From the NCBI RefSeq assembly GCF_000058485.1, contig NC_008278.1, positions 550,962 through 614,961 on the forward strand: a stretch of 64,000 nucleotides of DNA, in the 5' to 3' direction. Source of the DNA: Frankia alni ACN14a. Its GTDB lineage: Bacteria > Actinomycetota > Actinomycetes > Frankiales > Frankiaceae. Shown piece by piece: positions 12,192 to 61,549 of the stretch (its first letter is position 1; every line of letters starts with the position of its first letter). Made by a program: the position numbers and the translations under genes. A model generated the notes under the pieces. The model searched no databases, had not been told where the DNA came from, and worked only from the letters and a program-made list of their open reading frames with translations.

Positions 12192-12270
12192 TGCCCACCT
12201 GGCCTTTCAGTCGGTATCTGCGGTGTTGCGGTCCGAGCCGTGTACGGGGAGCGGCGCGAGACGCGGCGGC

Positions 12271-16925: not shown

Positions 16926-17081
16926 GTCGGGTTGTTCGTCGGCATCGAGTGCTTCCAGTCGGTCGGGGCGTGGCCTGGCCGGTGGGGGCGTGGCCTGGTC
17001 GGTCCGCGCGTGGCCCGGTTGGTCAGGGCGTGGCCTGGTTGGTCAGCGCGTGGCCCGATTGGTCGGGGCGTGGCCGGTTGG

Positions 17082-43535: not shown

Positions 43536-43549
43536 CGGCCAATCCTGGC

Positions 43550-44392
43550 CTACTGGTCACGGTGGGTACCGGCAGTGGTCGGGATTCCGATCGTGTGGAC
43601 CCACTCCTCGTAGCGACCGACCGGGAGGAAGCCGAGGGCGGCGTAGAGGCCACGGGCCATCGGCGTCGACTGCAGGGTCGCGGTCCGCGCCCCGTCCTGT
43701 TCGGCGACGGCGAGCACGTGGCGCAGCAGCGCCGTCGCCAGGCCGCGCCGTCGCCAGGCCGGGGCCGTCCCGACCGTGTAGATCCCGCAGTCGGCGCCGT
43801 GCCGGAAGCTCCAGGCGCCCGCCACCGCGGCTCCGTCGCGCAGCAGGGCCCAGGCGGCCAGGCCCGGCACCGCCTCCGGTAAACCGAGTTCGGCCGCGTC
43901 GAGCGGCCCGTCGGCGGCCCGGATGGCCGCGTCGATCGAGGTGCGGACGACGCCGTCGGTCCGGGTCGGCCCAGGTTGCAGCACGGCCCGCATGACGAGC
44001 GTCGTGGTGTCACGAGTGAGCCCGTCGACCGTGCACGGCCCGTCGACCGTGCACGGCCCGTCGACCGTGCGCGGCTCGTCGGGGGTGTCGAGGTCCGTCG
44101 CCCGGCTCGGGATCCACAGCGCCCACGTGTCGACGCCGGCCGCGGCGTACAGCCTGCCCAGCCGGCCCGCGACCGTCGACGCGGTGGCCACGTCGTCGAG
44201 CAGGATCGCGTTGTTCAGCGGCGCCCAGTCCGGGAAGACCGCCGCGACCGCACCGGGCGGGTGGACCAGCCCGGCGCCCGGTGATGTTCGGGCCAGGGCC
44301 GCCCAGCTGGCGAGCAGCGTCTCCTGCCCCGGCAGCGTCGTAGCTGTGCTCGTGCCCGCCGGTTGCCCGGTCCCATGCCCGGTCCCAGTCAT
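43550..44392 (-). CDS. GNAT family N-acetyltransferase
   Basis: C-terminal acetyl-CoA-binding motif RRRGLATALLRHVL. GGGAGG RBS. Has a GPCTVD x3 repeat. Confidence 0.6.
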   Translation of the reverse strand: MTGTGHGTGQPAGTSTATTLPGQETLLASWAALARTSPGAGLVHPPGAVAAVFPDWAPLNNAILLDDVATASTVAGRLGRLYAAAGVDTWALWIPSRATDLDTPDEPRTVDGPCTVDGPCTVDGLTRDTTTLVMRAVLQPGPTRTDGVVRTSIDAAIRAADGPLDAAELGLPEAVPGLAAWALLRDGAAVAGAWSFRHGADCGIYTVGTAPAWRRRGLATALLRHVLAVAEQDGARTATLQSTPMARGLYAALGFLPVGRYEEWVHTIGIPTTAGTHRDQ

Positions 44393-44531
44393 GCGTCCGC
44401 CTCCCGCCTGTCTGGTACGGGACATCGATGCCGGCCCCGGTAGCTCCGTCGACTATGGCCCCTGGCCAGGCACCGCCCGGGTCGGATCGACGGCACGCTT
44501 CTCCAGACCGTCAGAAGATCCCGGCAATCGT

Positions 44532-45537: not shown

Positions 45538-46545
45538 ATGACTGAGTTCGCGATCGCGCCGCCGTCCGCTGTCCGTAACGATTCCCTCGTCACGACCGGG
45601 CTCGACTGTCTCGCCGAGACCGAGGCGTTCAACGCCGCGTTCGAGGCCAAGGCGGGCTCCGTGCCGGACCGCAGCCGAGGGGTGGACGCCGCGACGCTGG
45701 CGACGTTGCGGCGTAACCGGGTGGGTGGCGAGGCGCCGCCGGTGCGCCTGGCCGAGGCGCACGACCGGCAGGTCGAGGTCGACGGGGTGCGGGTCGGGTT
45801 GCGGGTCTTCGTCCCGCCCGTCGTCGAGGGCGCCTACCTGCACATCCACGGCGGCGCGTGGATGTTCGGCTCGGCCGACGGGCAGGACGAGCAGCTGTGG
45901 GACCTCGCCCGCACCGCCCGGCTCGCCGTGCTCAGCGTCGACTACCGCCTCGCGCCCGAACACCCGTACCCGGCGGCGCTGGACGACTGCGAACGGGCCG
46001 CGCTGTGGCTGGTCCGCAACGCCGCGGTCGAGTTCGGCACCGACCGGCTGCTCATCGGCGGCGAGTCCGCCGGCGCGCACCTGTCGCTGACCAGCCTGCT
46101 GCGGCTGCGGGACCGACACGCGATCACGGGGGCGTTTCGGGCGGCCCACCTGACGTTCGGGCCGTACGACCTGTCGATGACGCCGAGCCAGCGCCTGTTC
46201 GGCTCCCGCCGGCTGGTGAGCAACACCGACTCGCTACGGGGGACCTACGACGCGTTCGTCCCCGGTCGGACGCCCGAGCAGCGGCGCGACCCGGACGTGT
46301 CCCCGCTGTACGCGGACCTCGCGGGCATGCCCGCGGCGCGCTTCGTGGTCGGCACCGACGATCCGCTGCGCGACGACTCACTGTTCATGGCCGCGCGCTG
46401 GCGGGCCGCCGGACTGCCGGTGGAACTGGAGGTGGTGGCCGGGGCGATGCACGGGTTCACCCTGTTCCCCCTCACCATCACCGAACGGGAGCTGCGCCGG
46501 CAGACCGAGTTCCTGTCGGGGGCGGGACGTAGCCTCCGGCCGTGA
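45538..46545 (+). CDS. alpha/beta hydrolase (HSL-type esterase/lipase)
   Basis: HGGAW oxyanion motif and GESAGAHL nucleophile elbow. Confidence 0.75.
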   Translation: MTEFAIAPPSAVRNDSLVTTGLDCLAETEAFNAAFEAKAGSVPDRSRGVDAATLATLRRNRVGGEAPPVRLAEAHDRQVEVDGVRVGLRVFVPPVVEGAYLHIHGGAWMFGSADGQDEQLWDLARTARLAVLSVDYRLAPEHPYPAALDDCERAALWLVRNAAVEFGTDRLLIGGESAGAHLSLTSLLRLRDRHAITGAFRAAHLTFGPYDLSMTPSQRLFGSRRLVSNTDSLRGTYDAFVPGRTPEQRRDPDVSPLYADLAGMPAARFVVGTDDPLRDDSLFMAARWRAAGLPVELEVVAGAMHGFTLFPLTITERELRRQTEFLSGAGRSLRP

Positions 46546-47252
46546 CCCGAACGGACCGGCTCTATGCGCTGATGGAGGAGCTGCGGGCGGTGGCGCCGCG
46601 TCCCGTCACGGTGCCGGTGCTCGCGCGACGTCTGGAGGTCAGCGAGCGCACCGTGCAGCGGGATCTGAAGGCGCTGGCGGAGACAGGCGCCCCCGTCTAC
46701 AGCGCCACCGGGCGCGGCGGCGGCTGGTCCGTGGACCCGGCGATGACCCTGCCGCCGATCGGGTTCACGCCAGGGGAGGCCCTGGCGGTGGCCGCGGCGC
46801 TGGCCGCCGCGGAGGGCTCCGCGCCGTTCGCCGACGGCATCCGCGGCGCGATGCGGAAGATTGCCGCGTCCCTGTCCGGCCAGGCCCTCGTCGAGGCGCA
46901 CGAGTTGGCCGCCCAGATCGTCGCCCTGCCGTCCCGGCTCGACCCAACGGTCCGCGGCGCGGTGGAGTGGGCCCTGACCCGGCGGGAGGTGCTGTCGCTG
47001 AGCTACCTGGACGCCGGCGGGCGCACCTCGGAGCGGGAGGTGGAGCCGGCCGGCCTGCTCGCCGCCGAGGGCCGTTGGTACCTGGTGGCCTGGTGCCGCC
47101 TGCGGCGCGCCCCGCGCGGTTTCCGGCTCGACCGGATTCGCGCCGCCGCCCCGACCGGGCAGGCCGCCCCCCGCCGCGAGCTCGCCGACCTGCTCGGCTC
47201 GGCCGCCACGGGCGCGGTCACTCCGGCCGTGCTGGACAGCCTGGCCCCCTGA
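46542..47252 (+). CDS. HTH plus WYL-domain transcriptional regulator
   Basis: N-terminal HTH (LARRLEVSERTVQRDL) and a C-terminal WYL motif (GRWYLVAWC). GTGA overlap with the esterase stop. Confidence 0.65.
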   Translation: MTRTDRLYALMEELRAVAPRPVTVPVLARRLEVSERTVQRDLKALAETGAPVYSATGRGGGWSVDPAMTLPPIGFTPGEALAVAAALAAAEGSAPFADGIRGAMRKIAASLSGQALVEAHELAAQIVALPSRLDPTVRGAVEWALTRREVLSLSYLDAGGRTSEREVEPAGLLAAEGRWYLVAWCRLRRAPRGFRLDRIRAAAPTGQAAPRRELADLLGSAATGAVTPAVLDSLAP

Positions 47253-47368: not shown

Positions 47369-48127
47369 TCAGAGGTTCTGGCCGCCGGACAGCTCGATAC
47401 GGGTGCCGTTGGCCCAGCCGAAGCCATCGGCGAGGATCAGCGGCACGGCCGCGCCGATGTCCTCGGCCTCGCCCACGCGGCCCAGCGGGATGGCGCTCGC
47501 GACCGCCTCGTTGAGCTGGGCGTTGTCCCGGAGCCGGCCGCCGCCGAAGTCGGTGGCGATCGCCCCCGGCACGAGTACGTTGACCCGGATACCTCGCTCG
47601 CCGAGCTCCTTGGCCTGATACCTGGTCAGGACCTCGATCGCCCCCTTCGCGGCGGCGTAGGCGGAGGTGCCAGGATGGGTGAAGCGGGCCAGGCCGGAGG
47701 AGACGTTGAGGATGCGTCCGCCGTCGGCCAGCAGTGGCAGCAGCGTCTGCGTCAGGAAGAACGGCGCCTTGACGTGAATCCGGAACAACTCGTCGAACTG
47801 GTCCTCGGTCGTCTCCGTGAACGGCGCGTAGAGGCCGACGCCGGCGTTGTTGACGAGGTAGTCGAGGCGCTCGGCGCCGAGGCCGGCGAGCGTCGTGCGG
47901 ACGTCGGCCGCGAATCGGGCGAAGTCGCCGCTGTTGCCCACGTCGAGCTGCAACGCCGCCGCGGGCACCCCCTGCCCTTCGAGCTCCGCCACGAGCCGGT
48001 CGGCCTCGTCCTTGCGGCTGTTGTAGGTGCCGATGACGCCCACCCCGGCGCGGGCGAGGTGGGTGGCCATGCTGCGCCCGAGGCCGCGGCTCGCGCCGGT
48101 GATCAGGGCGATTCTGCTGTCGGACAT
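47369..48127 (-). CDS. SDR-family oxidoreductase
   Basis: TGASRGLG, NNAG and YAAAK motifs. Confidence 0.8.
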   Translation of the reverse strand: MSDSRIALITGASRGLGRSMATHLARAGVGVIGTYNSRKDEADRLVAELEGQGVPAAALQLDVGNSGDFARFAADVRTTLAGLGAERLDYLVNNAGVGLYAPFTETTEDQFDELFRIHVKAPFFLTQTLLPLLADGGRILNVSSGLARFTHPGTSAYAAAKGAIEVLTRYQAKELGERGIRVNVLVPGAIATDFGGGRLRDNAQLNEAVASAIPLGRVGEAEDIGAAVPLILADGFGWANGTRIELSGGQNL

Positions 48128-48331: not shown

Positions 48332-49189
48332 GTGCAGCGCCAGGAGCTGGGTGCATTCCTTCGTCACCGGCGGGAGCTGCTGCGGCCGTCGGACGTCGGG
48401 CTGGTCGCCGGTGGTCGGCGGCGGGCGCCCGGTCTGCGCCGCGACGAGGTCGCCGTGCTCGCCGACATGTCGACGGACTACTACGAGCGGATTGAGCAGG
48501 GCCGTGGGCCGAGGCCGTCGCCGTCGATGCTCGGCGCGATCGCGCGGGCGCTGCGCCTCACGCTGGACGAGCGCGACCACGTCTACCTGCTGGCCGGCCA
48601 CGAGGCCCCGCCGCGGCACTGCTCGCTCGGCTACGCCGACGCCGGCCTGATGTGCGTGCTGGACGCACTTGCGCCCACCGTGCCAGCGCTCATCTCCGAC
48701 GACCTCGCCAACGTCGTGGCGCAGAACCCGCTGAACATCGCGCTGCTCGGCCCGATCGCCCGCGCGCCGGGTCGGGCGCACAACTTCCTGTGGCGCTGGT
48801 TCACCGACGGTGAGCTGCGCGCGCGATACCTCGCCGACCAGCACGACACGCTCGGCCGCGAGCACGTCGCGGACCTGCGCGTCACGCTTGGCCGGCGGCA
48901 TGAGGACGAGGCGGTCCGATCCCTCGTCGCCGAGCTCTCGGCGGCCAGCGCCGAGTTCCGCGAGGTGTGGGCCCGCCAGGAGGTGGCGGTGCGGCGGACC
49001 ACCCGCAAGGTGCTCCTCCATCCCGAGGTCGGCCGGCTCGACCTGGAGTGCGACGCGGTGGTCAGCCCGCCGTCCGGCCAGCGACTGGTCCTGTTCCGCC
49101 CGCAGCCCGGTTCGGGGGCGGGTGAACGCCTGGAGATGCTCGCCGTCCTCGGCACCCAGACCTTCCTGGCACCTGGCCGTTCGCGCTGA
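48332..49189 (+). CDS. MmyB-like (XRE HTH plus ligand-binding domain) transcriptional regulator
   Basis: LGAFLRHRRELL...GLRRDEVAVLADMSTDYYERIEQGR. GTG start with GGAGG. Confidence 0.65.
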   Translation: MQRQELGAFLRHRRELLRPSDVGLVAGGRRRAPGLRRDEVAVLADMSTDYYERIEQGRGPRPSPSMLGAIARALRLTLDERDHVYLLAGHEAPPRHCSLGYADAGLMCVLDALAPTVPALISDDLANVVAQNPLNIALLGPIARAPGRAHNFLWRWFTDGELRARYLADQHDTLGREHVADLRVTLGRRHEDEAVRSLVAELSAASAEFREVWARQEVAVRRTTRKVLLHPEVGRLDLECDAVVSPPSGQRLVLFRPQPGSGAGERLEMLAVLGTQTFLAPGRSR

Positions 49190-49203: not shown

Positions 49204-50460
49204 TCAGGCCGGGACGAGGCCGTGCAGCGCTGCCCACCGGCCGACCTCCTCCCGGCGCAGCGCCGTGGCCAGCAGCTCGGGGAATCTGTCCGGGGTGCAG
49301 GCGAAGGCCGGCGCGCCGAGCTGCGCGCAGGTCGCCGCGAGTTGGTGATCGTAGGCGGGGGCGCCGTCGTCGGACAGCGCCAGCAGCACGATGACGGTGA
49401 CCCCGGCGTCGACCAGCGCACGCAGCCGGGCGATCAACGACGACTGGTCGGCGCCCTCGATGAGATCGCTGATGAGGATGAGGACGGTGTCGGCGGGCCG
49501 GCGCACGAGACTCGCGCCGTAGCCGACCGCGCGGTCGATGTCGGTGCCGCCGCCGAGCTGGACCCCGAAGAGCACGTCGACGGGGTCGTCGAGGGAGTCG
49601 GTCAGGTCCACCACAGACGTGTCGAAGACGACCAGCCTGGTGCTCAGGGACCTGATACTCGCCAACGACGCGCCAAGCACCCCGGCGTAGACGACCGACG
49701 ACGCCATCGAGCCGCTCTGGTCGATGAGCAGAATGACGTCGCGCAACGCGGCCACCCGCCGGGCCCGCTGGTATCCGACCAGTCGGTCGACGATGACGGT
49801 GCGCTGCTCGGGCTGGTAGTTGCGCAGGTTGGCGAGGATCGTCCGGTTCCAGTCGACGTCGGGCAGCCGTGGGGTGCGGGCACGCTCGCCGCGGTTCAGC
49901 GCGCCGAACACCGCCGAGCGCAGCGACTGCGCCAACCGCCGCTCGATGTCCTCGACGACCATGCGGACCACCCTCCGCGCGGTCTCCCGGGTGCGTTCGG
50001 GCAGCGCCGAACGCAACGACAGCAGCGTGCCCACCAGGTGGACGTCGGGCTCGGCCGCCGCCAGCAGCTCGGGCTCCATGAGCAGCTGCGCGAGCCCCAG
50101 CCGCTGGACGGCGTCGTGCTGGAGGACCTGCACCACCGACGACGGAAAGTAGTCGCGGATGTCGCCGAGCCAGCGGGTCACCGCCGGCGCCGATCCGCCG
50201 AGCCCCGCCGAGCGCTCCCGGCCGCGACCGCCACCGGATTCGCCGTCGGCGTCGTAGAGCGCGCCCAGCGCGGCGTCGATGTCGGCGTCCCGCTTCGACA
50301 GCGCCCGCGCCGGGCCGAACGCGGGCGCCGCCGGCGCCCCGAGGACCAGCCGCCACCGCCGCAGCCGCTCCTCCTCCGTCACCTCCGTCTTGTCCGTCTC
50401 GCCGTGGGCGGACCGTGCCGGTGGCGGACCGTCGACGTCGGTGATCGTGGGGTCAGGCAT
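49204..50460 (-). CDS. vWA-domain protein (CoxE-like) of the SWIM-MoxR-vWA operon
   Basis: MIDAS LLIDQSGSM. Overlaps the upstream gene by 8 nt. Confidence 0.7.
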   Translation of the reverse strand: MPDPTITDVDGPPPARSAHGETDKTEVTEEERLRRWRLVLGAPAAPAFGPARALSKRDADIDAALGALYDADGESGGGRGRERSAGLGGSAPAVTRWLGDIRDYFPSSVVQVLQHDAVQRLGLAQLLMEPELLAAAEPDVHLVGTLLSLRSALPERTRETARRVVRMVVEDIERRLAQSLRSAVFGALNRGERARTPRLPDVDWNRTILANLRNYQPEQRTVIVDRLVGYQRARRVAALRDVILLIDQSGSMASSVVYAGVLGASLASIRSLSTRLVVFDTSVVDLTDSLDDPVDVLFGVQLGGGTDIDRAVGYGASLVRRPADTVLILISDLIEGADQSSLIARLRALVDAGVTVIVLLALSDDGAPAYDHQLAATCAQLGAPAFACTPDRFPELLATALRREEVGRWAALHGLVPA

Positions 50461-52927
50461 CGGTGTGTTCCTTCTCCGCGCGGGCAGGCGCTGCGCTGTC
50501 GGGGCCGAGCAGGGCGGCGAGGGTGGGCAACACGATCGCGACCCGAGCGGGGTCCCAGGCCGGGCCGTCGCCGGGCGGGATCGCCCCGGTCGGCGGTCTG
50601 GCCGTGGCCGGACTCCCTCCCGGGCTCGTGGTGTCTGCCGGGTCTGTCACGGCGCCGCCCGGGGGCTCGGCGGTCGGCCGGGGCAGGCCGGAGCGGACCC
50701 GTTCGCCGATCAGGCGGCGTTCCGGGCCGGCGAAGGCGGCGAACGTGCGGCGCAGGGGCGCGAGGACGACCGTGAAGGCGTCCCCGTCGAGGCCGGCCAG
50801 CCAGGTGTCGACGAGCGAGAGCATCGCGGGGTCACGGGCGAGCACCGCGCCGGACCGGCCGAGGAAGCCCGCGAGCCAGTGCGCGGCGTCCGCGGGGGCG
50901 CCGCCGGCCGCGGACAACGCCCGCGCCAGCCTGGTCGCCACCGCCGCGGGCGTGAGCCGGCCGGCATCGGACAGGATGCGGGTGCACCGCCCGGCAACCA
51001 GCGGGTTACCACCGGCCGTGGTGGCGGCGACGCCGACCGCCGCGTGCCACCGGGCGACGTGTTCGGGGTCGGCGACGAGCCCGAAGGCGGTGTCCGCGGT
51101 GTCGACGGCGGCGACCATGGCGTCCGCGGCGTCGTCGTCGAGGCTTGCGCAGGCCGCCGGCAGCCCCGCGCAGATGCGGGTCATCAGGCTCGTCGTCAGC
51201 CCGACGACCAGGCCGGTGTCGGTGCCGCGCACGTCGCCGTAGCGGTGGACCCGGGCCAGCGGGGCCAGTGCCAGCATGAGGTGGGCGACGTCGCCGGTCG
51301 TGGCCGCGCGCTGTTCGAGCCCCGCGCGCACCGCCTCCAGCGCGGCGGGCAGGTCCGCGAGGACCACCTGCTCGAACAGCCCGGTGATGGCGGCGAGGTC
51401 GGGCGCTGCCCGGGTGCGCTCGGCGACGACGTCGCCCGCGGCGTCCTCGACGGTCGCACCGTGCCGGGCGGCCACGACGAGTGCCAGCGCGAACGTCGGC
51501 TGCCAGGCGAGCGTCCAGCCCTCGGCGAACGTGCCGGTGCTGCTGGTCGCGGTGGGGATGCCCCAGTCGACGTCGAGCAGGCGCAGCCGGTGCAGCAGGG
51601 CGCTGCGTTCCCGGTCGAGCTCGCGGCGTAGGTCCAGGCGCAGTGGCTTCTCCACCGGGGTGGGTGCGAGCCGCAGCCTCTTCTGCGTGCGGGCGACGTC
51701 GGCGGCCAGCGGCACGGTGGGCACGTCGGGGCCGACGGCGCCGACGACGTCACCGATGACGAGCTGTTCGCGGACGACGGCCAGCGGCACCGGGTCACCG
51801 GCGCAGAGCCCGGCCAGCACCGCGTCGGTCAGCTCGGTGAGCCCTGGGACGGCTCGCTCGCGCACCGCGGCGAGGGCCTCGGCCAGCCGCACGGTCTCCA
51901 CCACCGAGGCCGTCGAGGCGGGCAGGTCGGCGGCGCGCAGGAGCGCCGCGACGCGGGCCACCCACCGGGCGCCGACCTGGTCGGGGGCGGTCCACAGGTG
52001 GTGGTACCAGCCCGGTGACGTGACGCCGGCGCCGTAGCCGGAGTCGGCGCTCAGCAGCGCGTGCGTCCACGGCACCCACGTCGTGGTGGTGCGCACCGGC
52101 CGGATGCCGCGCAGCAGCTCACGGTCCGCCGCGACGGTGGTCCGGCCCGTCCGGCCGGTCAGCGCCGGGACGTGCCACGCACCGCAGAGCACGGCAACCC
52201 GCGCAGCGGCGTCGGCGCCGGTGCTGGCCGCACGGATCGCCAGGCGCATGTGCGCCTCCCGCAGGTCCTCCCGCCGAGCGTGCGCTCCCCGCGACGCAGC
52301 CGGACCGGGCTGGTGGTCGGGATCGCGCAGCGCCGCCATGGCCTCGGCCACGGCGGCGAACAGCTCCAGACCCGGGGAACGGCCGCCCGCGCCGGCCGTC
52401 GGGGTGCTCGCGGGCCGGCGGTGTTCGACGAGGTCCTCCCAGAATCGTTCCGGGTCGTCGTGGCCGGCGGCGAACGCCAGCCAGCCAAGCGGGTCGGCCA
52501 CCAGCTCCGGGACCGTGTCCTCGTCGGCTTCCCCCGTGTCCTCGTCGGCTTCCGCCGTGTCCTCGTCGGCTTCCCCCGTGTCCTCGTCGGAGTCGGTCTC
52601 GGCGTCGCGCCGGCGCAACGCCAGGTCGTGCCCGAAGGGCAGGTCGATGAACCGGGTGGGCACGCCCGCCGCGCGGCCGTGCAGCAGGGCCTGCCACTCG
52701 GGGGAGAACTCGGCGAGGGGCCAGAAGGCGGCGTCGCGCGGCTCGTCGACGGCGTAGGCGGTCAGCGCGACGGGCGGGGTGAGCGCGCCGACGTGGACGA
52801 GCGCGCTGTCCCCCTCGGGCGGCCCCTCGACGAGGACGAGGTCCGGATCGAGCTCGGCGAGCGCCGCCCGCACCGCACGCGCCGAACCGGGGCCGTGGTG
52901 GCGCACCCCCAGAACGGTGACGGTCAT
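50453..52927 (-). CDS. large conserved protein of unknown function (DUF5682/YehM-like candidate) of the SWIM-MoxR-vWA operon
   Basis: 823 aa starting MTVTVLGVRHHGPGSARAV. Has an EDTGEADE x4 repeat. Shares 1 nt with the AAA gene stop. The DUF assignment is from memory. Confidence 0.55.
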   Translation of the reverse strand: MTVTVLGVRHHGPGSARAVRAALAELDPDLVLVEGPPEGDSALVHVGALTPPVALTAYAVDEPRDAAFWPLAEFSPEWQALLHGRAAGVPTRFIDLPFGHDLALRRRDAETDSDEDTGEADEDTAEADEDTGEADEDTVPELVADPLGWLAFAAGHDDPERFWEDLVEHRRPASTPTAGAGGRSPGLELFAAVAEAMAALRDPDHQPGPAASRGAHARREDLREAHMRLAIRAASTGADAAARVAVLCGAWHVPALTGRTGRTTVAADRELLRGIRPVRTTTTWVPWTHALLSADSGYGAGVTSPGWYHHLWTAPDQVGARWVARVAALLRAADLPASTASVVETVRLAEALAAVRERAVPGLTELTDAVLAGLCAGDPVPLAVVREQLVIGDVVGAVGPDVPTVPLAADVARTQKRLRLAPTPVEKPLRLDLRRELDRERSALLHRLRLLDVDWGIPTATSSTGTFAEGWTLAWQPTFALALVVAARHGATVEDAAGDVVAERTRAAPDLAAITGLFEQVVLADLPAALEAVRAGLEQRAATTGDVAHLMLALAPLARVHRYGDVRGTDTGLVVGLTTSLMTRICAGLPAACASLDDDAADAMVAAVDTADTAFGLVADPEHVARWHAAVGVAATTAGGNPLVAGRCTRILSDAGRLTPAAVATRLARALSAAGGAPADAAHWLAGFLGRSGAVLARDPAMLSLVDTWLAGLDGDAFTVVLAPLRRTFAAFAGPERRLIGERVRSGLPRPTAEPPGGAVTDPADTTSPGGSPATARPPTGAIPPGDGPAWDPARVAIVLPTLAALLGPDSAAPARAEKEHTDA

Positions 52928-54093
52928 CAGGCGTCGCCGGGGACGCGCGCGTCGTCGTCCAGGTCACGGCAGGCCCGGTACAGGTCCGACCAGCCCTTCC
53001 GGTCCCGGACCACGCCTTCGAGGTACTCGCGCCAGGCCACGGGATCCGTCGCGGGATCCTTGATCACCGCATCGACGAGCCCGGCGGCGACGTCCTCGGC
53101 TCGCAGTCGGCCGTCGCCGAAGTGGGTGGCCAGTGTGATGCCCCCGGTGATCACGCTGATCGCCTCGGCCGTGGACAGGGTGGCGGTCGGGGACTTCAGC
53201 GTGGTGCGCCCGTCGCGGGTGACGCCGGCGCGCAGCTCCCGGAAGATCTGCACGACGCGGCGCACCTCGCTCGCGGCCGGTGGCTCGTCCGGCAGCGCCA
53301 GCGTCCGGCCGAGGTCGGCGACCCGCCTGGTGACGATCTCCACCTCGGCGTCCTCGCTGGCGGGCAGCGGCAGCACGACGGTGTTGAACCGGCGGCGCAG
53401 CGCCGAGGACATCTCGTTGACGCCGCGGTCCCGGTCGTTGGCGGTGGCGATCACGGCGAATCCGGCGACGGCCTGCACCTCGCTGGCCAGCTCGGGCACG
53501 GGCAGGGTCTTCTCCGACAGCACGGTGATGAGCGCGTCCTGCACCTCGGCGCCCATCCGGGTGAGCTCCTCGACCCGGGCGATCGACCCGCGGGTCATCG
53601 CGCGCATCACCGGCGAGGGCACCAGCGCATCGGGGGAGGGCCCCTCGGCGATCAGGCGGGCGTAGTTCCAGCCGTAGCGGACGGCGTCCTCGGAGGTGCC
53701 GGCGGTGCCCTGCACGACGAGGGTCGAGTCGCCGCTGACCGCGGCGGCGAGGTGCTCGGACAGCCAGCTCTTCGCGGTGCCGGGGCTGCCGAGCAGCAGC
53801 AGCGCCCGGTCGGTGGCGAGGGTGGCGACCGCGACCTCGACGAGGCGCCGGGAACCGATGTACTTCGGGGAGATGACCGTCCCGTCGTCGAGCACGCCGC
53901 CGAGCAGGTAGGTGACGACCGCCCACGGCGACAGCCGCCACGACGGCGGGCGTGCCCTGGTGTCGGCGGCGGTGAGCGCGGCGAGTTCGCCGGCGTACGC
54001 CTGCTCGGCGTGCGGACGCAGCAGCGGCGCGCTGTCCGCGGTGGGACCGGCGTCGGGCGTGGCGGTGCTGGTGGACGGGGGCGCCAGGGTCAT
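52927..54093 (-). CDS. MoxR-like AAA+ ATPase
   Basis: Walker A LLLGSPGTAKSWL and Walker B region ATANDRD. ATGA overlap with the SWIM gene. Confidence 0.75.
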   Translation of the reverse strand: MTLAPPSTSTATPDAGPTADSAPLLRPHAEQAYAGELAALTAADTRARPPSWRLSPWAVVTYLLGGVLDDGTVISPKYIGSRRLVEVAVATLATDRALLLLGSPGTAKSWLSEHLAAAVSGDSTLVVQGTAGTSEDAVRYGWNYARLIAEGPSPDALVPSPVMRAMTRGSIARVEELTRMGAEVQDALITVLSEKTLPVPELASEVQAVAGFAVIATANDRDRGVNEMSSALRRRFNTVVLPLPASEDAEVEIVTRRVADLGRTLALPDEPPAASEVRRVVQIFRELRAGVTRDGRTTLKSPTATLSTAEAISVITGGITLATHFGDGRLRAEDVAAGLVDAVIKDPATDPVAWREYLEGVVRDRKGWSDLYRACRDLDDDARVPGDA

Positions 54094-57000
54094 GAGGGGC
54101 CTTCCTGAGGCAGGTGCACCGGGCGGGTCGGCGCGGTGTCGGCGGGGGGTGGGTCGGTCAGTGCGGCGCGCAGCCGCCGTCGGGCGCCGAGGATCGTGGT
54201 CAGCCGGGTGCGCCCGTCGAGATCCAGGTACCTCGGCCGATCCGGATTGGGATCGCCGAGATCGGTGTCGGGATGCAACGCCCAGGCCATGGGTCCGATG
54301 AGCTCACGCAGGAGGTAGTCGTCGGAGTAGTGACGTGCGGACAGGGCGGTGAGCGCGGTCCACACCGCCCGGGAGAACGGTTCGGACCACGGGCCGGGCA
54401 CCGCGGTCAACAGCGTCGTGATCCGCTCGACCGGCGTGTCCGGCCACCGCCCGTCCTGGTCTCGGGCGGCTGACCCGTCTGGGTGGTAGGAGTCGAGCCT
54501 CAGCCCGCGCAGCGTGTCCGTGAGAGCCTGCGTGCGGGCGGGCTCGGCCAGGCAGGCGAGCAGCCGCCCCTGGTACGTCCGCCCGACGTGGGGCAGCAGC
54601 GCCGCAACCCAGCCGGGATCGCCATGGCGCAGGACGGCGGGCAGCAGCCCGATGCTCAGCAGTTGGCTCACCGGATGGCGTGCCCCGGGCAGGTCGGCCC
54701 CGGCATCGAGGAACTCCTTCGGGGTCAGCCCGGTGCGGCGCGTCCACACGGTCGGATCGACGCGGGCGAGTTCGGCCACGAACATGACCTCGCCCGCCGT
54801 CGCCCTGCCGAGGATCAAGCTGGCCGGATCCGTGTCGCTGATGCCGTCGCGGCGCATCTCGTCACTGCACTCGGCCGGCAGGGTGATCTCGAGATGGTGG
54901 CGCCCGCCCAGCCTGCCGCGCCGTGACGTGATCATTCCTTCGGTGCGCGCCTCGGCGCGTGCCTGCAGCCCGGAGCCGGGCAGGAGCAGAGCGATCTCGA
55001 CCGCGGCCCGGCGGATGTCCTCGCGCCGGTCGTCAAGGGCATGGTCGAGCAGGTCGACGTCCCAGGGACCGAGACCGACCCGCAGCGCCTCGCAGAAGGC
55101 GAGGCGTTCCGCGGCGCCGGCCGCGTCGAACGCGGCGAAGGGGGGATCGTCCGCCGGGCCGCGCAGGAGCGTCACCGCGGCGGCCGGGTCGCGCTGCCGC
55201 AGTTCCTGCACCAGCGTGCGCCGCTCGAGGGCGCTCGCGGTCGGCCAGTCGGCGAGGCGGGTGCGCGAGACCCACCGGCCGTCCGGGTGCAGGCCGGCGA
55301 GCCACCGCCCGCGCTCACCCAGAACCCTGGCGATCGGGGCGCGCATCGCCACATCCCGCAGGCCCCGCGACAGCAGCCCCGCCAGCAGGAGATCCGGAAC
55401 GCGCCACCCTCCCTCGGCCATCAGCTCCAGGTACTGGCGGGTCCCCGCGGGCTCGGATCCGTCCAGCGCGCCCTCGACGATGCGCGCCGCGTGCGGCGCC
55501 AGCGTCGGAGCCCGCTCGGGCGGGGCGGGGGCGGGGGCCGGCAGCGCACGGGCGTCGGCGGCGAACAGGCCGGCGCGGCGCGCGCAGGACGCGAGGGCCG
55601 CCGTCCGCAGCAGAGCGGTGGCGCGCGAGGGCCCGTCCCCCGCCGCGCCGCCTCCGCCGCCGCTTCCACCGCCGCCTCCGCCGGAGCCGGCAGCGTCCCC
55701 GAGGTCGGGGAGGACGGGCACGGCGGCACGCGCCGAGCCGACGACAGCCGCGTCGACCAGGCTCGACCATCCCGGCGTCGGTCGCGGACAGGCGGGCTGC
55801 CCGGGGGGTACTGGGGGCTCGGCCCCAGGATCCGCGGCGCCCGTCCGCGCGGGCAGGCCGGTGCCGGGCTGCGGCCGGGACGCCATCGCCGCCAACGGCA
55901 CCAGCTCGAACCCGTCCCACTCCACTCCGAGGTCGAGGGGGTGGCCGCCGCCGAGGGCCAGCAGGTGCCAACCCCACCGGGCGCCCGCGTCGGCTGTCAG
56001 CGCAAGGGCCTGACCGGCCCGGTCTCGCAGCAGCCAGCGAGCACCGACGCCCGACGGGCCCCCGCCCTGTCGGCCCTTCCGTGCCACCGCGCCCGTCGGC
56101 GCCTTGTCGTGGGCGTCGACGATGGGTGGCAGCACGGTGAGCTGCCGGACGATGAACGCGACGGGGTCGGCCCACGGGTCCGCCGCCAACGCCGGGGTGA
56201 GCGCCGCCAGTGCCTCCTGCCAGGTCCCGGCGGTGTCACCGGCGTCGGTGGCGGCCAGTTCGGCGAGTGGCTGCGGTGCCGTGGTGGTCTCGGCGAGGGC
56301 CACCCTGGTCGGACGACGCCCCGGATACGCGGCTACCTCACCCTGGAAGCGGGTGAGGACAGGCAGAGTCGGCGGCGGGACCTCCTTGGCGGAGCCGTAG
56401 GAGACCAGCAGGGCGAGCCGTTCGATCCCGGCCACCCGCAGCCACTGCCGCCGCCCCTGCAGCTTTCCGGTGGTGAACCGGCGCTCGCCGAGGACGTCGA
56501 TCGGCCCGGCGAGCCGCTCGCCGGCGAGCACGTCCGAGGCGCTGCGGGAGAAGCCGATCCGGTCGCGCACGACGTCGACCAGCGCGGGCTCCACCTCCCC
56601 CCGCCTCGACCAGCCCTCGCAGAGCAGGTACAGGCGGCCGAGCCGGTCGGTGAGCCGCGCCGGCCAGTCGGGACCGCCCGCCGCGGCGATCCGCGCCATG
56701 TCGCGGACGACTTCGGCCAGGCCCGGAGCCTGCGCGTCGACCATCCGCGCCGCGGTCGCCTCCCACCAGGAGGCCGGCTGGACCTGGGCGGCGCCGAGCC
56801 CGCCGTGGGCGAGATCGACCAGCCAGCGGCTCAGCTCCGCGACCCCGGCGTCGACCCGGGCGTCGCGGCGGGCCTGCGTGCGCGCCGCCGACGTGGCGCG
56901 GGACGCCCCGGCCTTCCCACCGGTTCCGGCCTTGCCCGTTCCCGCGGCCTCACCCGGTGCCGCCTCCGGTGAGGCTGCCCGCGCGGCGCGGGCGGCCCGC

Positions 57001-57341
57001 CGGGCGAGCCAGTCCGCGGCCCAGTCCGGCGGATCGTCGCCGGTGGCCAGCGCGGCCGGGGTGGCACAGGCGAGGAACAGCAGGCCGAGGGCATGCTTGC
57101 AGGGGAACTTCCGGCTCGGGCAGGTGCAGGAGGACGCGAACTCGGCGCCGGCCAGCACCACCACCCGGTACGGCGTGGCTCCGCTTCCCCGGCACGCCCC
57201 CCACAGCGCCTGGTTGGACATGCCGAGGCCCGACCAGCTTCCGGTGCTACCGAGCCGTTCGCCCGCCCGGGCGGAAGCCGAATCGGGCGCCAACGTGAGG
57301 ACGGCCTCGCGGCTCATGGCCGAGACAGGTGTCAGCGACAT
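54090..57341 (-). CDS. SWIM zinc-finger protein with Gly-rich linker and large C-terminal region (YehQ/DUF4132/DUF5691-like candidate)
   Basis: SWIM motif SCTCPSRKFPCKHAL. The start was reassigned to ATG 57339-57341, because the track start is a TTG. Confidence 0.6.
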   Translation of the reverse strand: MSLTPVSAMSREAVLTLAPDSASARAGERLGSTGSWSGLGMSNQALWGACRGSGATPYRVVVLAGAEFASSCTCPSRKFPCKHALGLLFLACATPAALATGDDPPDWAADWLARRAARAARAASPEAAPGEAAGTGKAGTGGKAGASRATSAARTQARRDARVDAGVAELSRWLVDLAHGGLGAAQVQPASWWEATAARMVDAQAPGLAEVVRDMARIAAAGGPDWPARLTDRLGRLYLLCEGWSRRGEVEPALVDVVRDRIGFSRSASDVLAGERLAGPIDVLGERRFTTGKLQGRRQWLRVAGIERLALLVSYGSAKEVPPPTLPVLTRFQGEVAAYPGRRPTRVALAETTTAPQPLAELAATDAGDTAGTWQEALAALTPALAADPWADPVAFIVRQLTVLPPIVDAHDKAPTGAVARKGRQGGGPSGVGARWLLRDRAGQALALTADAGARWGWHLLALGGGHPLDLGVEWDGFELVPLAAMASRPQPGTGLPARTGAADPGAEPPVPPGQPACPRPTPGWSSLVDAAVVGSARAAVPVLPDLGDAAGSGGGGGGSGGGGGAAGDGPSRATALLRTAALASCARRAGLFAADARALPAPAPAPPERAPTLAPHAARIVEGALDGSEPAGTRQYLELMAEGGWRVPDLLLAGLLSRGLRDVAMRAPIARVLGERGRWLAGLHPDGRWVSRTRLADWPTASALERRTLVQELRQRDPAAAVTLLRGPADDPPFAAFDAAGAAERLAFCEALRVGLGPWDVDLLDHALDDRREDIRRAAVEIALLLPGSGLQARAEARTEGMITSRRGRLGGRHHLEITLPAECSDEMRRDGISDTDPASLILGRATAGEVMFVAELARVDPTVWTRRTGLTPKEFLDAGADLPGARHPVSQLLSIGLLPAVLRHGDPGWVAALLPHVGRTYQGRLLACLAEPARTQALTDTLRGLRLDSYHPDGSAARDQDGRWPDTPVERITTLLTAVPGPWSEPFSRAVWTALTALSARHYSDDYLLRELIGPMAWALHPDTDLGDPNPDRPRYLDLDGRTRLTTILGARRRLRAALTDPPPADTAPTRPVHLPQEGPS

Positions 57342-57646
57342 GCCAGGGAGTCTGGCCCCGACCTCCGACACTTTTGCCCGGCGCAAGCACCCGGACGAAG
57401 GCCCTCGATCCGACCGGCGGCGCTGGTGGCCGAGGTGCCATGCAGTGAATAGGCACTACGTAAAATGGTTCAACCATCCGCAGGTCTGAATTCTCACACC
57501 GCACCCGAGCCGCTCAACCCGGCCGAGGAAGGTGGGCCTCACCTACCTGGCGGGACCCGGCTCCCCGGCGAGACCACGCTTTGCCTGCGCTGCCGACCGG
57601 CACGGCAGATGGTTGGCGCCACCGGGCTGCGGGAGGGCCACGGTGG

Positions 57647-58381
57647 TTATCGCGCGCGCCGGCCGCCGACCACGCTCAGCCCGAGCGTCCCGACGATGAC
57701 GGCCAGGAGCAACAGGATGGCCCAGAGGGGTCCGTCCTCGCCGATGAGGGCCTCCTCGCCGATGACGGCCGGGACCCAGACGAACGCGGCGGCCAGTTGG
57801 ATCCGGTGTCCGACGACGCGGCGGCGGGTGATCCTCTCCTGATCGGCCGCATCCGTGATCACCTGCCGGTGCCGGTGCAGCCATCGGACCGGGTCCTCGA
57901 ACCGGGTGGCTCCGGCGGCGAGCAGGAGTCGCTCCAGCCCCGATGGGTTCTCGGCACGCAGCTTCACGCCGTCGACGTAGGCCCCGCGCTCCGCCCGCGT
58001 CGAGAAGTAACCGAACGGAAGGTCGGAGTTCGGCGCCATCGCGGGCCCGAGCCGAAGCGGTGGCACCCGTTGCGGCTCGGTGAACATCAGCAGCAGGTTC
58101 GGCAGGGTCAAAGGCCCCGTGGTGAACAGGTAGGGAATCGTCACCTGACGGGCCAGAACCGGCTCGGGTTCTGGGATGTCCTCCGGTAGCGGCGCGCTGC
58201 TCAGGTCGCGCACGGCAACCCGATCTACCGGGATGGACCATGGACGGTCACCGAAGTACCCGGGGAGAACCAGCGACACCACCCCGGCCTCGTGGACCAC
58301 CCGGGGCTTGCGGACCGCGTACCAGTACGCCTTCAACCGTGTCGCTTCGGCCGGCGTCACCTCGTCCGATTTTCTCGGCAT
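57647..58381 (-). CDS. hypothetical protein with C-terminal TM anchor
   Basis: Good GC3. C-terminal LWAILLLLAVIVGTLGLSVV. No domain recognised. Confidence 0.4.
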   Translation of the reverse strand: MPRKSDEVTPAEATRLKAYWYAVRKPRVVHEAGVVSLVLPGYFGDRPWSIPVDRVAVRDLSSAPLPEDIPEPEPVLARQVTIPYLFTTGPLTLPNLLLMFTEPQRVPPLRLGPAMAPNSDLPFGYFSTRAERGAYVDGVKLRAENPSGLERLLLAAGATRFEDPVRWLHRHRQVITDAADQERITRRRVVGHRIQLAAAFVWVPAVIGEEALIGEDGPLWAILLLLAVIVGTLGLSVVGGRRAR

Positions 58382-58708
58382 ACCGCGAAAGATTTTACCT
58401 GAGGGCGCCGGTTCCGTTCGGGCTTTCGTCCGGTTGCGCGAGGTGACGACGGCGGTTGGAACACCGGGAGATCAAGAAGATCGCGAAGTCGCGGCCGTCC
58501 GACCACCCCCGAGCCGGCACGTTCCCGACGGCGACCTGCGAAACGCCCCGGATCCGGGCGCAGCCAGCCGGCGAAGCGGACACGCACGGTGGTCGACACA
58601 CGGCGGGCGGAGACCGGGGTGGGTTCTCCGGTTGACCCACAGGTGCTTTTCAGGTTCAACAGCGACCGAGGTCAGCCACTTTTCAGCCTTTTCGCCCAAC
58701 GTTGCCAC

Positions 58709-60139
58709 ATGACGTGGATGCCTCCTCCGGCGCCCGAGCCGCACGCTCGCCTCGGGCTGAAACCCAGGCGGCCGCGCGTCACGGCGTGGTCGCGCGATCT
58801 GCTGTCCGAGGATCGGCTTCCCGATCTGGCGGTGCGCCTCGGGCTCACCGCGGTCGGCGTCGCCGTCATCGCCCTGTGGTGGGTGGACACGCCTTCGTCC
58901 CGGGTGCAGACGGCGGCGGCCACGATGACCGCGCTCGGCCGGGTGGCCGGCCTGCTGGCCGCCTATCTCGTGCTGGTGGAACTGATGTTGATGGCCAGGG
59001 TGCCGGCGCTCGAGCGGGCGATCGGCTTCGACCGGCTGGCGTCCTGGCATCGAGGGCTGGGCACGAACATCGTGCTCCTCATCGGTGGGCACGTCCTGCT
59101 GACGGTGTGGGGCTACGGGCTGAGCGCGCACGAGCAGCCGCTGTCCGAACTCGTCACGGTGATCACGCGGTACCCGGACGAGTGGGAGGCGACCATCGGC
59201 GCACTGCTGTTCGTCGCCGTGGGGATCAGCAGCGCCTGGTCGTTGCGCGCCCGGATCTCGTATGAGGCGTGGTACGCGGTCCATCTGACGGTCTACGCGG
59301 CAGTCGCGCTCACCTTCTTCCATCAGATCGCGAGCGGCGAGGACTTCGTCGACCATCCCCGGAACAGGCTGCTGTGGACGGCCCTGTACCTGGCCGTGGC
59401 CGCCTGCCTCGTGGTCTGGCGGATCGTCCTGCCGGCGCGGGCCGACCTGCGACACCGGATGACCGTCGACCGGGTGGTGGTGGAGGCAGCCGGGGTCGTG
59501 TCCGTCTGGATTCGGGGGCGGCGGCTGGACCAGCTCGGCGCACTTCCCGGGCAGTTCCTGCTGTGGCGGTTCCTCGCCCGCGGGCAGTGGGCGTCCGCGC
59601 ACGCCTACTCGTTGTCGATGCCCCCGCATCCGGACCTGCTGCGGATCACCGTGAAGGATCTCGGCGACCAGTCCAGGGACCTCGCCCGGCTCCGGCCCGG
59701 AACCCGCGTGCTCGCGGAAGGGCCGTTCGGGCACTTCACCCACGCCCACGCCCACGCCCCCGCACGCAAGGCGCTGCTGATCGGCGGTGGCAGCGGCATC
59801 GGGCCCGTCCGGGCGGTGGCCGAGGACCTCGTCAACCGGGGCTGGGACGTCATCGTCCTGCAGCGGGCGAGCCGGCCGGACGATCTGCCGCTCGGCGGCG
59901 AGCTGTCGCTTCTCGCCGCTCACGGGCGCCTCGTGTTCCACCAGGTCGTCGGCAGCCGGCGGGAACTCGGCTACGACCCGCTCGCATCCGACATCATCGC
60001 CGTCTCCGTACCGGACGTCGCGCAGCGTGACGTCTTTGTCTGTGGACCCCCCGGGATGACGGCGGTTGTCGCACGCGGGTTGCGTGATCTCGGCGTCCCG
60101 ACGGGTCAGATCCACACGGAGGAGTACAGCCTGCGATGA
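58709..60139 (+). CDS. ferric-reductase-like transmembrane protein fused to FAD/NAD(P)-binding (FNR-like) domain
   Basis: Six TM helices with His ligands, then RITVKDLGDQS (FAD) and LLIGGGSGIGPV (NAD) motifs. Confidence 0.65.
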   Translation: MTWMPPPAPEPHARLGLKPRRPRVTAWSRDLLSEDRLPDLAVRLGLTAVGVAVIALWWVDTPSSRVQTAAATMTALGRVAGLLAAYLVLVELMLMARVPALERAIGFDRLASWHRGLGTNIVLLIGGHVLLTVWGYGLSAHEQPLSELVTVITRYPDEWEATIGALLFVAVGISSAWSLRARISYEAWYAVHLTVYAAVALTFFHQIASGEDFVDHPRNRLLWTALYLAVAACLVVWRIVLPARADLRHRMTVDRVVVEAAGVVSVWIRGRRLDQLGALPGQFLLWRFLARGQWASAHAYSLSMPPHPDLLRITVKDLGDQSRDLARLRPGTRVLAEGPFGHFTHAHAHAPARKALLIGGGSGIGPVRAVAEDLVNRGWDVIVLQRASRPDDLPLGGELSLLAAHGRLVFHQVVGSRRELGYDPLASDIIAVSVPDVAQRDVFVCGPPGMTAVVARGLRDLGVPTGQIHTEEYSLR

Positions 60140-60684
60140 ACGACATCGGCAGTCGCCGCTACCGGGGTCCACTCGGCTTCGCCGCCCTGGCGAGCGCGGT
60201 CGTCCTCGTCGTCGGCGTCAAGACGATTTCCGGCGACGGGTCCGCACCGAGCTCCGCGCTGGCGTCCGCGCCGCCTGACCGGGCCACGGCAGCCGACGCC
60301 GCCCCCTCGGCCTCACCCGATTCCGACCCGTCCGAGGCATCCGCCGCGCCCGACCCATCCGTCTCGTCCGGCTCCGGTAGTGCGGCCGGCTCCGGCGGCT
60401 CCAGCGCCCGACAGACCGTGCGAGGGGACGCGATCGACACCAGGTTCGGGCCGGTACAGGTCGACGTCGTCCTGGCCGGCAGCACGATCGTCGACGTGGT
60501 GCCGGTGGTAGTGCCGGATCAGGATCCACGCGACCGCCAGATCAACGAGTACGCCGTGCCGCTCCTGCGGCAGGAGGTCCTCGACGCGCAGAGCGCGAAG
60601 ATCGATTCGGTCTCCGGCGCATCATTCACCAGCTACGGGTATGCATGGTCCGTCCAGTCGGTACTGGACAAGCTCGGTGCCTAG
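60136..60684 (+). CDS. FMN-binding domain protein (flavinylation target, signal-anchored)
   Basis: N-terminal TM, Ser/Ala-rich linker and a C-terminal FMN_bind-like DSVSGASFTS motif. ATGA overlap. Confidence 0.6.
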   Translation: MNDIGSRRYRGPLGFAALASAVVLVVGVKTISGDGSAPSSALASAPPDRATAADAAPSASPDSDPSEASAAPDPSVSSGSGSAAGSGGSSARQTVRGDAIDTRFGPVQVDVVLAGSTIVDVVPVVVPDQDPRDRQINEYAVPLLRQEVLDAQSAKIDSVSGASFTSYGYAWSVQSVLDKLGA

Positions 60685-61549
60685 CCCGACGAACGCGCCG
60701 AGGCCAGCGGGCCGGACCGGCCGGGTTCACCCCGAGCCGGTGATGGGCACGGTCGTCAGCATCGACGTGCGCACCCCGTTGCCGCCGCCGGCCCTCGACG
60801 CGGCGATCGAGACGGCCGTCGCCGTCCTGCATCAGGCGGACGAGGACTTCAGTACGTTCCGGCCCGAGTCCTGGGTGTCTCGGCTGCGGCGGGGCGAGGT
60901 CGACCTCGCCGACTGCCCGGAGCACGTGCGCGAGGTGTATCGGCTGGCCGGGCGTTGCCGGGACGCCACCGGCGGCTGGTTCGACCCGGCCTGGCGGCGG
61001 GACGGCACCCTCGACCCCACCGGGCTGGTGAAAGGCTGGGCCGCCGATGCGGCCTCCGCCGCCCTGATCGAGGCCGGCGCCCCGGACCACTGCGTCAACG
61101 CGGCCGGCGACCTGCGGATCCGCGGCGCGGCCGGACCGTCAGCCGAGGGATCGTCAGCCGAGGGATCGGGGTCCGGCAAGCCCTGGCGGATCGGCATCGT
61201 CGACCCGTTCGACCGGGGCGGGCTGGTCGCGGTCGTCGAAGGCACCGATCTCGCCGTGGCCACGTCCGGTATCGCGGAGCGTGGCAGCCACGTCGTCGAC
61301 CCGTCGACCGGCGTGCCCGCGAGCGGTCTGGCCTCCGTGACCGTCGTCGGGTCCGACCTGACCGTGGCGGACGCCTACGCGACCGCGGCGCTCGCCGCCG
61401 GGTCGGATACGGGCGACCTGCTCGCGGAGTTCACTCGGGCGGGTTGGGCGTGGCTTACCGTCACGACAACCGGCCGGATCCGCGCCGGCAAGGCCTTCCC
61501 CGGTCAACTGGCCGCCGGGAGACAGCAGCTGGGAATGCCGGCACTGTAG
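60641..61549 (+). CDS. ApbE-family FAD:protein FMN transferase
   Basis: VMGTVVSI, GLVKGWAAD, HVVDPSTG. Start uncertain. Confidence 0.65.
   Translation: MHGPSSRYWTSSVPSPTNAPRPAGRTGRVHPEPVMGTVVSIDVRTPLPPPALDAAIETAVAVLHQADEDFSTFRPESWVSRLRRGEVDLADCPEHVREVYRLAGRCRDATGGWFDPAWRRDGTLDPTGLVKGWAADAASAALIEAGAPDHCVNAAGDLRIRGAAGPSAEGSSAEGSGSGKPWRIGIVDPFDRGGLVAVVEGTDLAVATSGIAERGSHVVDPSTGVPASGLASVTVVGSDLTVADAYATAALAAGSDTGDLLAEFTRAGWAWLTVTTTGRIRAGKAFPGQLAAGRQQLGMPAL

Follow-up and report, generated by a model that had tools for sequence, protein, structure and literature searches.

We analysed a window of 64,000 nucleotides (nt), the whole stretch from position 550,962 to 614,961 of Frankia alni ACN14a (NC_008278.1), and found that the four minus-strand genes at 49204-57341, here called A, B, C and D, very likely constitute a complex-forming cassette of the YehLMPQ family. 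The locus is best explained as the F. alni copy of a widespread, self-contained four-gene cassette built around a MoxR ATPase of the YehL subfamily, the products of which may act as one gated complex; we hold this explanation as a whole with slightly less than even confidence. The families concerned are already present in Pfam and in the NCBI annotation, so that the Frankia locus is an ordinary member and not new biology. MoxR proteins have been divided into seven subfamilies, among which YehL is listed without a function (PMC3893208). In the MoxR literature we found neither a function assigned to the cassette nor any mention of DUF5682 or DUF5691, in agreement with a first-pass annotation of this DNA, made from its letters, which had stated that no function has been demonstrated for the arrangement. 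No NCBIfam model is specific for any of the four proteins.

According to the list of open reading frames (ORFs) and their translations, four minus-strand frames fill the interval. Gene A (54090-57341) encodes a protein of 1083 amino acids (aa) consisting of a SWIM finger, a helical bundle, a beta domain and a HEAT-like solenoid (DUF5691). Gene B (52927-54093) encodes a MoxR-type AAA+ ATPase of the YehL subfamily (388 aa), gene C (50453-52927) a DUF5682 protein of the YehM family, and gene D (49204-50460) a CoxE-type von Willebrand factor A (vWA) protein of the YehP family (418 aa). The length of C is 824 aa, which corrects the 823 aa given before. The overlaps of 1-8 nt between the genes could be confirmed from the junction sequences: A and B share 4 nt (ATGA, 54090-54093), B and C a single nucleotide (TGATG, 52927), and C and D 8 nt (ATGCCTGA, 50453-50460). 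The four genes are translationally coupled. Since the GC content at third codon positions (GC3) is 0.89-0.92 in a genome of about 75% GC, the value also found for the window DNA, all four are real coding frames. No stretch of 19 residues in A to D is hydrophobic enough for a membrane span, and the proteins are therefore taken to be soluble.

The locus had been likened to yehLMPQ of Escherichia coli, and we compared it protein by protein with the yeh locus of E. coli K-12 (locus L001; yehLMPQ at 8597-14945). B aligns with YehL over 357 residues at 43% identity (E 2e-78), and D with YehP, from residue 33 onwards, at 37% identity (E 2e-75; both VWA_CoxE). Between C and YehM, both DUF5682 proteins (E 2.4e-98 for YehM), the identity is 27% (E 4e-35). 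A and YehQ each carry a Pfam SWIM finger near residues 60-90. Outside this finger nothing aligns between the two (BLASTP E > 1, hhalign probability 0.3%), profile comparisons of YehQ or YehI with A gave no signal beyond SWIM, and YehQ, with 614 aa, is without DUF5691. Three of the four genes thus belong to families orthologous to YehL, YehM and YehP, while for the fourth each organism has its own version of the same type of component. In both organisms the genes are tightly packed on one strand. The SWIM gene, however, comes first in Frankia and last in E. coli, where the DUF4132 genes yehH/molR and yehI, absent at the Frankia cassette, lie directly upstream of yehL. The gene order in Frankia is SWIM, AAA, DUF5682, vWA and not L-M-P-Q; this order is common across phyla and that of E. 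coli is a variant. The likeness to yehLMPQ therefore stands for B, C and D, whereas YehQ matches A in the SWIM finger only and the order differs.

The four genes are also co-conserved as a block. A scan based on an alignment of DUF5682, with one genome taken per species, gave 80 loci, and neighbours were counted in those loci that had enough flank. The loci come from Actinomycetota, Cyanobacteria, Bacteroidota, Chloroflexota and Planctomycetota as well as from Acidobacteriota, Proteobacteria, Deinococcota, Clostridia and Methylomirabilota. The four families are thus adjacent across about ten phyla, with many filamentous lineages among the hosts. The AAA gene lies immediately upstream of the DUF5682 gene in 68 of 72 loci, and the vWA gene immediately downstream in 68 of 74; upstream, 60 of 64 loci also encode a SWIM protein. 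The modal arrangement, seen in 48 of 62 loci, has SWIM-AAA-DUF5682-vWA in this order on a single strand. When the flanking ORFs of the 80 loci were clustered, neither a fifth conserved gene nor a linked client was found; there was only synteny at the level of lineages, such as the sucC and mutase genes beside the cassette in Streptomyces, and generic ABC transporters. Because this clustering gave no further conserved partner, the cassette is regarded as autonomous.

The A-type component is the most variable and most replaceable subunit. In six loci of the Streptomycetaceae type the SWIM gene is divergently transcribed. In the cyanobacterial locus L022 (3146-9721), the SWIM, middle and DUF5691 parts are separate ORFs, and a gene of the Uma2 family (putative restriction endonuclease-like) and a small ORF stand between the AAA and DUF5682 genes. 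AAA, vWA and SWIM genes were not found in the available flank of several other cyanobacterial DUF5682 genes, of which two (L024, L080) have the full upstream flank and three (L005, L031, L039) have little flank on one side. The Trueperaceae locus L029 is without a SWIM/DUF5691 gene and has, after the vWA gene, a gene for a multi-WD40 protein of 1125 aa (14104-17478), which suggests that the receptor-like subunit is exchangeable. In four Chitinophagaceae loci a HEAT and DUF4132 protein is added to the A-type component, and E. coli likewise has DUF4132 proteins at its cassette.

The second and the fourth gene are what they had been taken for. B matches Pfam AAA_5 (E 1e-35), and this match, together with the similarity to YehL, identifies it as a MoxR-like AAA+ ATPase. 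It contains the motifs of an active AAA+ module, namely Walker A GSPGTAKS (53767-53790), the Walker B-like IARVEE (53566-53583), a sensor-1 ATAN and the arginine motif RRRF. All of them are conserved with YehL, and ATPase activity is predicted. The closest solved relatives of B are the AAA modules of Midasin and NorQ. The resemblance to Midasin/Rea1, an AAA_5 motor with a metal ion-dependent adhesion site (MIDAS), is a structural analogy, and the Frankia cassette has no ribosome-assembly context. D matches VWA_CoxE (E 1.7e-47) and has an intact MIDAS, composed of DQSGS at residues 247-251 (49708-49722), GGGTD (49540-49554) and ISDLIEG (49453-49473). All the families that had been proposed for a Pfam search, SWIM, DUF5691, AAA_5, DUF5682 and VWA_CoxE, were found.

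The locus had also been said to mirror the NTPase-driven MoxR-vWA ternary conflict systems. Four classes of these systems have been defined, with VMAP, iSTAND, FtsH and beta-propeller components (Kaur et al. 2020, PMC7159879). According to such an explanation, the cassette would be an anti-phage or conflict system in which the ATPase and the vWA protein form a threshold switch, freeing a TraB-like effector once the SWIM/HEAT or WD40 subunit has detected an invader. Like the ternary systems, the cassette has a MoxR and vWA core with additional conserved large subunits and occurs in filamentous hosts. It is autonomous and is found in changing genomic contexts in many phyla, and in L029 the SWIM protein is replaced by a WD40 protein. 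The P-loops GSPGTAKS of B and GEPGTAKS of YehL fit the GXXXTAKS variant of the FtsH and beta-propeller ternary systems, and there is a weak, sub-threshold match to bpMoxR (22.8 versus 27 bits). Mutants of E. coli in hns/stpA show raised expression of yehL and yehM (PMC3686432). However, a Pfam search of A to D for the third components of ternary systems (VMAP, iSTAND, FtsH and the beta-propeller-fused vWA) found none of them, no effector domain is fused to the vWA protein in the cassette, and the paper that defines these systems mentions neither SWIM, TraB nor YehL (PMC7159879). The suggested parallel is thus an analogy only.

The tests of a defence context were also negative. With PADLOC-DB 2.0 no specific match was obtained; B, C and D gave none, and A a single weak one (E 0.002) that covers the SWIM region only. 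Co-occurrence with defence islands, which had been proposed as a check, was not seen either: of 118 proteins encoded immediately beside the cassette in 32 loci with a GC content of 60% at most, any single defence family matches three or fewer. The E. coli version is near-universal, single-copy and chromosomal, unlike the variable defence islands. It is present in 5353 of 5426 complete genomes (98.7%), in 5210 of them with a coverage of at least 80%, is nearly always single-copy, and lies on the chromosome in 5371 of 5374 places. DUF5682 is rare on plasmids (39 of 72,556 records, mostly megaplasmids or large non-mobilisable replicons) and essentially never occurs on phages, where one doubtful record was found. 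There are no hypervariable or swapped effector domains. We rejected the defence-system reading because PADLOC brought up no recurring match, either for the four proteins or for their 118 neighbours, and because the searches of the E. coli pangenome, plasmids and phages point to a stable chromosomal locus. A conflict role is possible, but on balance it is not supported, and we consider it improbable.

As a separate observation from the 5,426 complete E. coli genomes, 934 records match yehLMPQ at only 90-95% identity.

Protein A was described beforehand as a 1083-aa protein with a SWIM finger, a Gly-rich linker and a large C-terminal region, and all three parts were recovered. The SWIM zinc finger (PF04434, residues 58-89, 57075-57170 on the minus strand; 29.8 bits against a cut-off of 19.6) is of the CxC...CxH type. 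Its ligands in CTCPSRKFPCKH, C72, C74, C81 and H83, are invariant across 73 homologues. The CxC-x(n)-CxH zinc ligands are thus present, and zinc binding is predicted. DUF5691 covers residues 528-1060 (54162-55760, minus strand; E 2.3e-101), a helical repeat that is all-helical in the structure model. The Gly-rich disordered linker at residues 552-570 (55632-55688, minus strand) lies between the N-terminal half and DUF5691. Its predicted local distance difference test score (pLDDT) is about 50, and at the DNA level it contains a repeat of the (CCG)n type (55640-55683). For A, NCBI has an entry of 100% identity, named 'SWIM zinc finger family protein' [Frankia]. Protein A has HEAT repeats and a structural match to ZSWIM8 (12% identity), a SWIM-domain substrate receptor of a cullin-RING ligase. 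This likeness is a structural analogy only, and no cullin or ubiquitin machinery is found here. We propose that A is the scaffold or the client receptor of the cassette.

SWIM domains occur in DNA-binding and repair-associated proteins, which speaks for a stress system directed at DNA or chromatin, in which the SWIM finger would bind DNA or a repair protein, and the ATPase and vWA protein would remodel nucleoprotein after damage. DUF4132 proteins, moreover, accompany the cassette in two settings. In four Chitinophagaceae loci (L021, L027, L032 and L058) a gene of about 980 aa with HEAT and DUF4132 follows directly after the vWA gene (at about 13450-16400), which parallels yehH/molR and yehI of E. 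coli (L001, 1411-7912). MolR carries a WGR domain and has been described as part of the LexA regulon (PMC8533742), WGR being a DNA-binding domain (PMC7824862). In the radiation and desiccation regulon of Deinococcus, a DUF4132 gene and a gene with a WGR domain are strongly induced (PMC8533742). On the other hand, neither the window nor most of the loci contain a WGR or DUF4132 gene, and the cassette has no linked nuclease, helicase or recombinase. ZSWIM8, the best structural analogue of A, is a receptor for protein substrates and not a DNA binder. Taken together, we consider a DNA-directed function very improbable.

The third gene product, C, had been described as lacking any recognisable catalytic motif, and this description has to be revised. 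C matches Pfam DUF5682 over its full length (E 5.7e-250), and its closest homologues are found in Frankia (91% and 83% identity) and Parafrankia (71%). In the structure model (pLDDT 85.4, predicted template modelling score 0.80), an N-terminal alpha/beta domain (about residues 1-315) is followed by a helical segment (318-400) and by a small alpha/beta unit at 406-475. The rest comprises a helical-repeat region (478-746), a disordered linker (755-791) and a conserved terminal helix (793-807). The N-terminal domain (residues 1-315, 51983-52927 on the minus strand) is TraB/ChaN/TIKI-like and carries the invariant elements G7xRH10H11, E34, E77, D95, E168, E224 and C248GAWH252. The DUF5682 family comprises about 3,200 clusters at 50% identity. 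A profile search of the representatives with the N-domain was used to size the family, its listed matches being the best 150. Conservation was read from YehM, the protein of this locus and 148 representatives of 50%-identity clusters, 150 sequences in all. Among these, R9, H10, H11, E34, E77, D95, E168, R201, R223, E224, G249 and H252 never vary where they are covered, and G7-x-x-H10, E34 and G249-x-x-H252 are invariant.

The best PDB matches of the N-domain fold are a TraB protein and ChaN. The domain has the alpha/beta fold with the parallel sheet core common to TraB, ChaN and Ere, and its site contains two G-x-x-H motifs and a conserved Glu, as expected for the 2His/2Glu type. G-x-x-H follows strand 1, the Glu follows strand 2, then comes R-E-x-x-M-R, and G-A-W-H follows a late strand. 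The YbaP/TraB alignment (Pfam TraB) parallels this layout with GSIH, E67, QRNxAWR and GALH, and the distance from the first His to the Glu is similar, with 24 residues in C and 26 in YbaP/TraB. Enzymes of the TIKI superfamily use a 2His/2Glu site on this fold to hydrolyse peptides or esters (PMC6254334). In contrast to the TIKI/TraB/PrgY/ChaN/erythromycin-esterase superfamily, the N-domain of C is followed in the same chain by some 500 residues of helical repeats, sits in a MoxR/vWA cassette, and has more invariant acidic residues (E77, D95, E168 and E224) than the canonical 2His/2Glu site. Very probably the domain carries an enzymatic or metal centre, and we think it somewhat more probable than its opposite that this is an active or metal site of the TraB/TIKI superfamily. 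C may be read as a probable hydrolase, the likeliest kind being a site-specific peptidase or an esterase. The motif GVRHHGPG had also been considered as a histidine-phosphatase (RHG) signature, a reading that was dropped because the fold matches TraB and ChaN.

From these components a mechanism can be proposed. The four products would form one soluble cytoplasmic complex, in which a hexamer of the MoxR protein B would provide ATP-driven pulling or remodelling. At its MIDAS metal site, D may take hold of an acidic residue belonging to a client or to another subunit, in the manner of other MoxR/vWA pairs, for which peptide capture at the MIDAS and chaperone-like maturation have been described (PMC7159879, PMC3893208). 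A, with its SWIM finger and HEAT solenoid, would be the scaffold or client receptor, and C would hold the TraB-like hydrolytic or metal centre, to which B and D would gate the access of the client. Since no client is encoded beside the cassette, it may be a component of the cell at large or a protein of the cassette itself. We suggest, tentatively, that the overall job is the ATP-gated hydrolytic processing of a protein client. A further step would be to regard the cassette as an unrecognised client-selective processing machine, in which a specific target protein, of the cell or foreign to it, would be chosen by a ZSWIM8-like SWIM/HEAT receptor, extracted or unfolded by a Midasin-like AAA_5 motor and its MIDAS partner, and cut by the DUF5682 protein, acting as a TIKI/TraB-type peptidase. 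This more specific idea is a long shot.

Several points weigh against the proposed gated complex and its hydrolytic subunit. The case for a physical complex comes from the structure of the operon and from synteny, and the readings of the YehL-type families are computational. The link of C to TraB and TIKI comes from fold and motif layout only. Pfam TraB, ChaN and erythromycin-esterase did not match C at E values up to 10, sequence and profile searches of the PDB with C returned noise only, and Foldseek against the PDB gave nothing significant. In an hhalign comparison of C with a narrow TraB alignment (12 sequences, Enterobacteriaceae only) the probability was 0.6%, which is not significant, and the comparison with YbaP alone was not significant either. 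The sole local match to the TraB profiles, again not significant, covers the last motif pair (the R-E-x-x-M-R/G-A-W-H region). C is thus without significant sequence or profile similarity to the TIKI/TraB/PrgY/ChaN superfamily, and because neither these tests nor Foldseek reached significance, we call its domain TraB/ChaN-like in fold and site layout and not a proven member. ChaN, the cleaner structural match to the N-domain, is a haem-binding protein and not an enzyme; the invariant residues of C could therefore bind a metal or cofactor instead of catalysing hydrolysis.

A rival explanation sees the cassette as a chaperone for metallocentre or cofactor maturation, comparable to CoxD/CoxE, NorQ/NorD or CobS/CobT/CobN (BchI/D/H). 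Insertion of the metal or cofactor into a client enzyme would then be driven by the AAA+ and vWA proteins, and DUF5682 would be the large metal- or cofactor-binding third subunit, whose ChaN-like domain would bind metal or tetrapyrrole through its invariant His, Cys, Glu and Asp residues. The cassette indeed shares with CoxD/CoxE and NorQ/NorD the pairing of an AAA_5 MoxR protein with a CoxE-family vWA/MIDAS protein, and NorQ is near B among the solved relatives. CoxD/CoxE and NorQ/NorD pairs are, however, encoded beside the enzyme that they mature, whereas no enzyme gene is conserved beside the cassette in the 80 loci or in the window, where none of the neighbours is conserved with the cassette across loci. 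The obligatory large partners DUF5682 and SWIM/DUF5691 set the cassette further apart, the SWIM/HEAT subunit having no counterpart in those systems. Finally, the TraB-like motif layout is no less suited to hydrolysis than to binding. We therefore regard a maturation role as rather unlikely, and return to the gated complex as the preferred explanation.

Two further features of C may be described here. The repeat that had been reported as EDTGEADE in four copies does exist as an acidic repeat, (EDTxEAD)n at 52513-52590 on the minus strand, but its unit is 7 aa (21 nt) and is present in 3.7 copies (96% matches in Tandem Repeats Finder). It lies in a disordered, non-conserved insert of the N-domain, with pLDDT below 50 at residues 125-137. 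The insert columns are variable among homologues, whose acidic or low-complexity inserts at this position are unrelated, and the 21-nt repeat looks like a recent slippage expansion. The C-terminal helix WDPARVAIVLPTLAALLG (residues 791-808, 50504-50557 on the minus strand) is, in the structure model, tethered by the disordered linker 755-791. Among 127 full-length representatives, D or N is conserved at position 792 in 101, R795 in 84, L807 in 91 and G808 in 83. One may speculate that this tethered helix with its conserved Asp/Asn is a docking motif for the MIDAS or for the AAA protein.

With regard to the control of the operon, the first-pass annotation had pointed to an MmyB-like regulator gene said to be divergent from it. 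This gene (48332-49189, plus strand; Pfam HTH_31 and MLTR_LBD) is in fact convergent with the operon, tail to tail: its end and the stop codon of D, which lie on opposite strands, are 14 nt apart. Its start is about 200 nt from an SDR gene (47369-48127, minus strand), and it is with this gene that it forms a divergent pair. The same divergent MmyB-SDR pair is found at the Parafrankia loci L002 and L003, but there on the other, upstream side of the cassette. Because of the convergent orientation, the pairing with the SDR gene and the changed position in Parafrankia, MmyB was rejected as a candidate regulator of the operon; the two genes are a self-contained pair that is not likely to regulate it. 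The 305-nt intergenic region upstream of A (57342-57646, minus strand) is the candidate promoter region and contains an AT-richer patch at about 57440-57480. A scan of this region for the sigma-70 consensus gave no match, and consensus scans for promoters and terminators found none; the operon promoter is therefore placed by position alone.

The neighbours of the cassette in the window are the SDR/MmyB pair, hydrolases, a WYL regulator and a ferric-reductase/ApbE set. An ORF of 244 aa (57647-58381, minus strand) with a coding-like GC3 of 0.83 is the operon's nearest neighbour on the upstream side. It matches no Pfam family, and the 80 related loci contain no counterpart of it at 45% identity or more. 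On the plus strand at 58589-61549 there follow in a row a membrane protein of 516 aa that resembles ferric reductases and has an NAD-binding domain, an ORF of 182 aa that carries no annotation, and a homologue of the ApbE flavin-transferase. The trio looks like an extracytoplasmic flavinylation or electron-transfer module and is not conserved together with the cassette. On the other side, an Abhydrolase_3 gene and a gene for an HTH_11/WYL-domain regulator (46542-47252) overlap by 4 nt within 45538-47252. A further alpha/beta hydrolase gene and a GNAT gene are located just upstream of this pair, at 42582-44425.

The YehL branch is large, with about 3,200 DUF5682 clusters, hosts in at least ten phyla and a presence in nearly every E. 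coli genome, and it stands in the MoxR literature without a function. Our analysis turns four domains of unknown function into a model with B as motor, D as MIDAS adaptor, A as SWIM/HEAT receptor and C as the subunit whose invariant His/Glu/Asp site sits on a TraB/ChaN-like fold, and it names specific residues of the cassette proteins for mutation. The TraB/ChaN-like site, the ZSWIM8-like receptor, the autonomy of the cassette and the evidence against a defence-island lifestyle provide handles for such work. If the client-selective machine outlined above were true, the cassette would be a protease system that is gated by ATP, cuts at specific sites and has no relation to Lon, Clp, FtsH or the proteasome.

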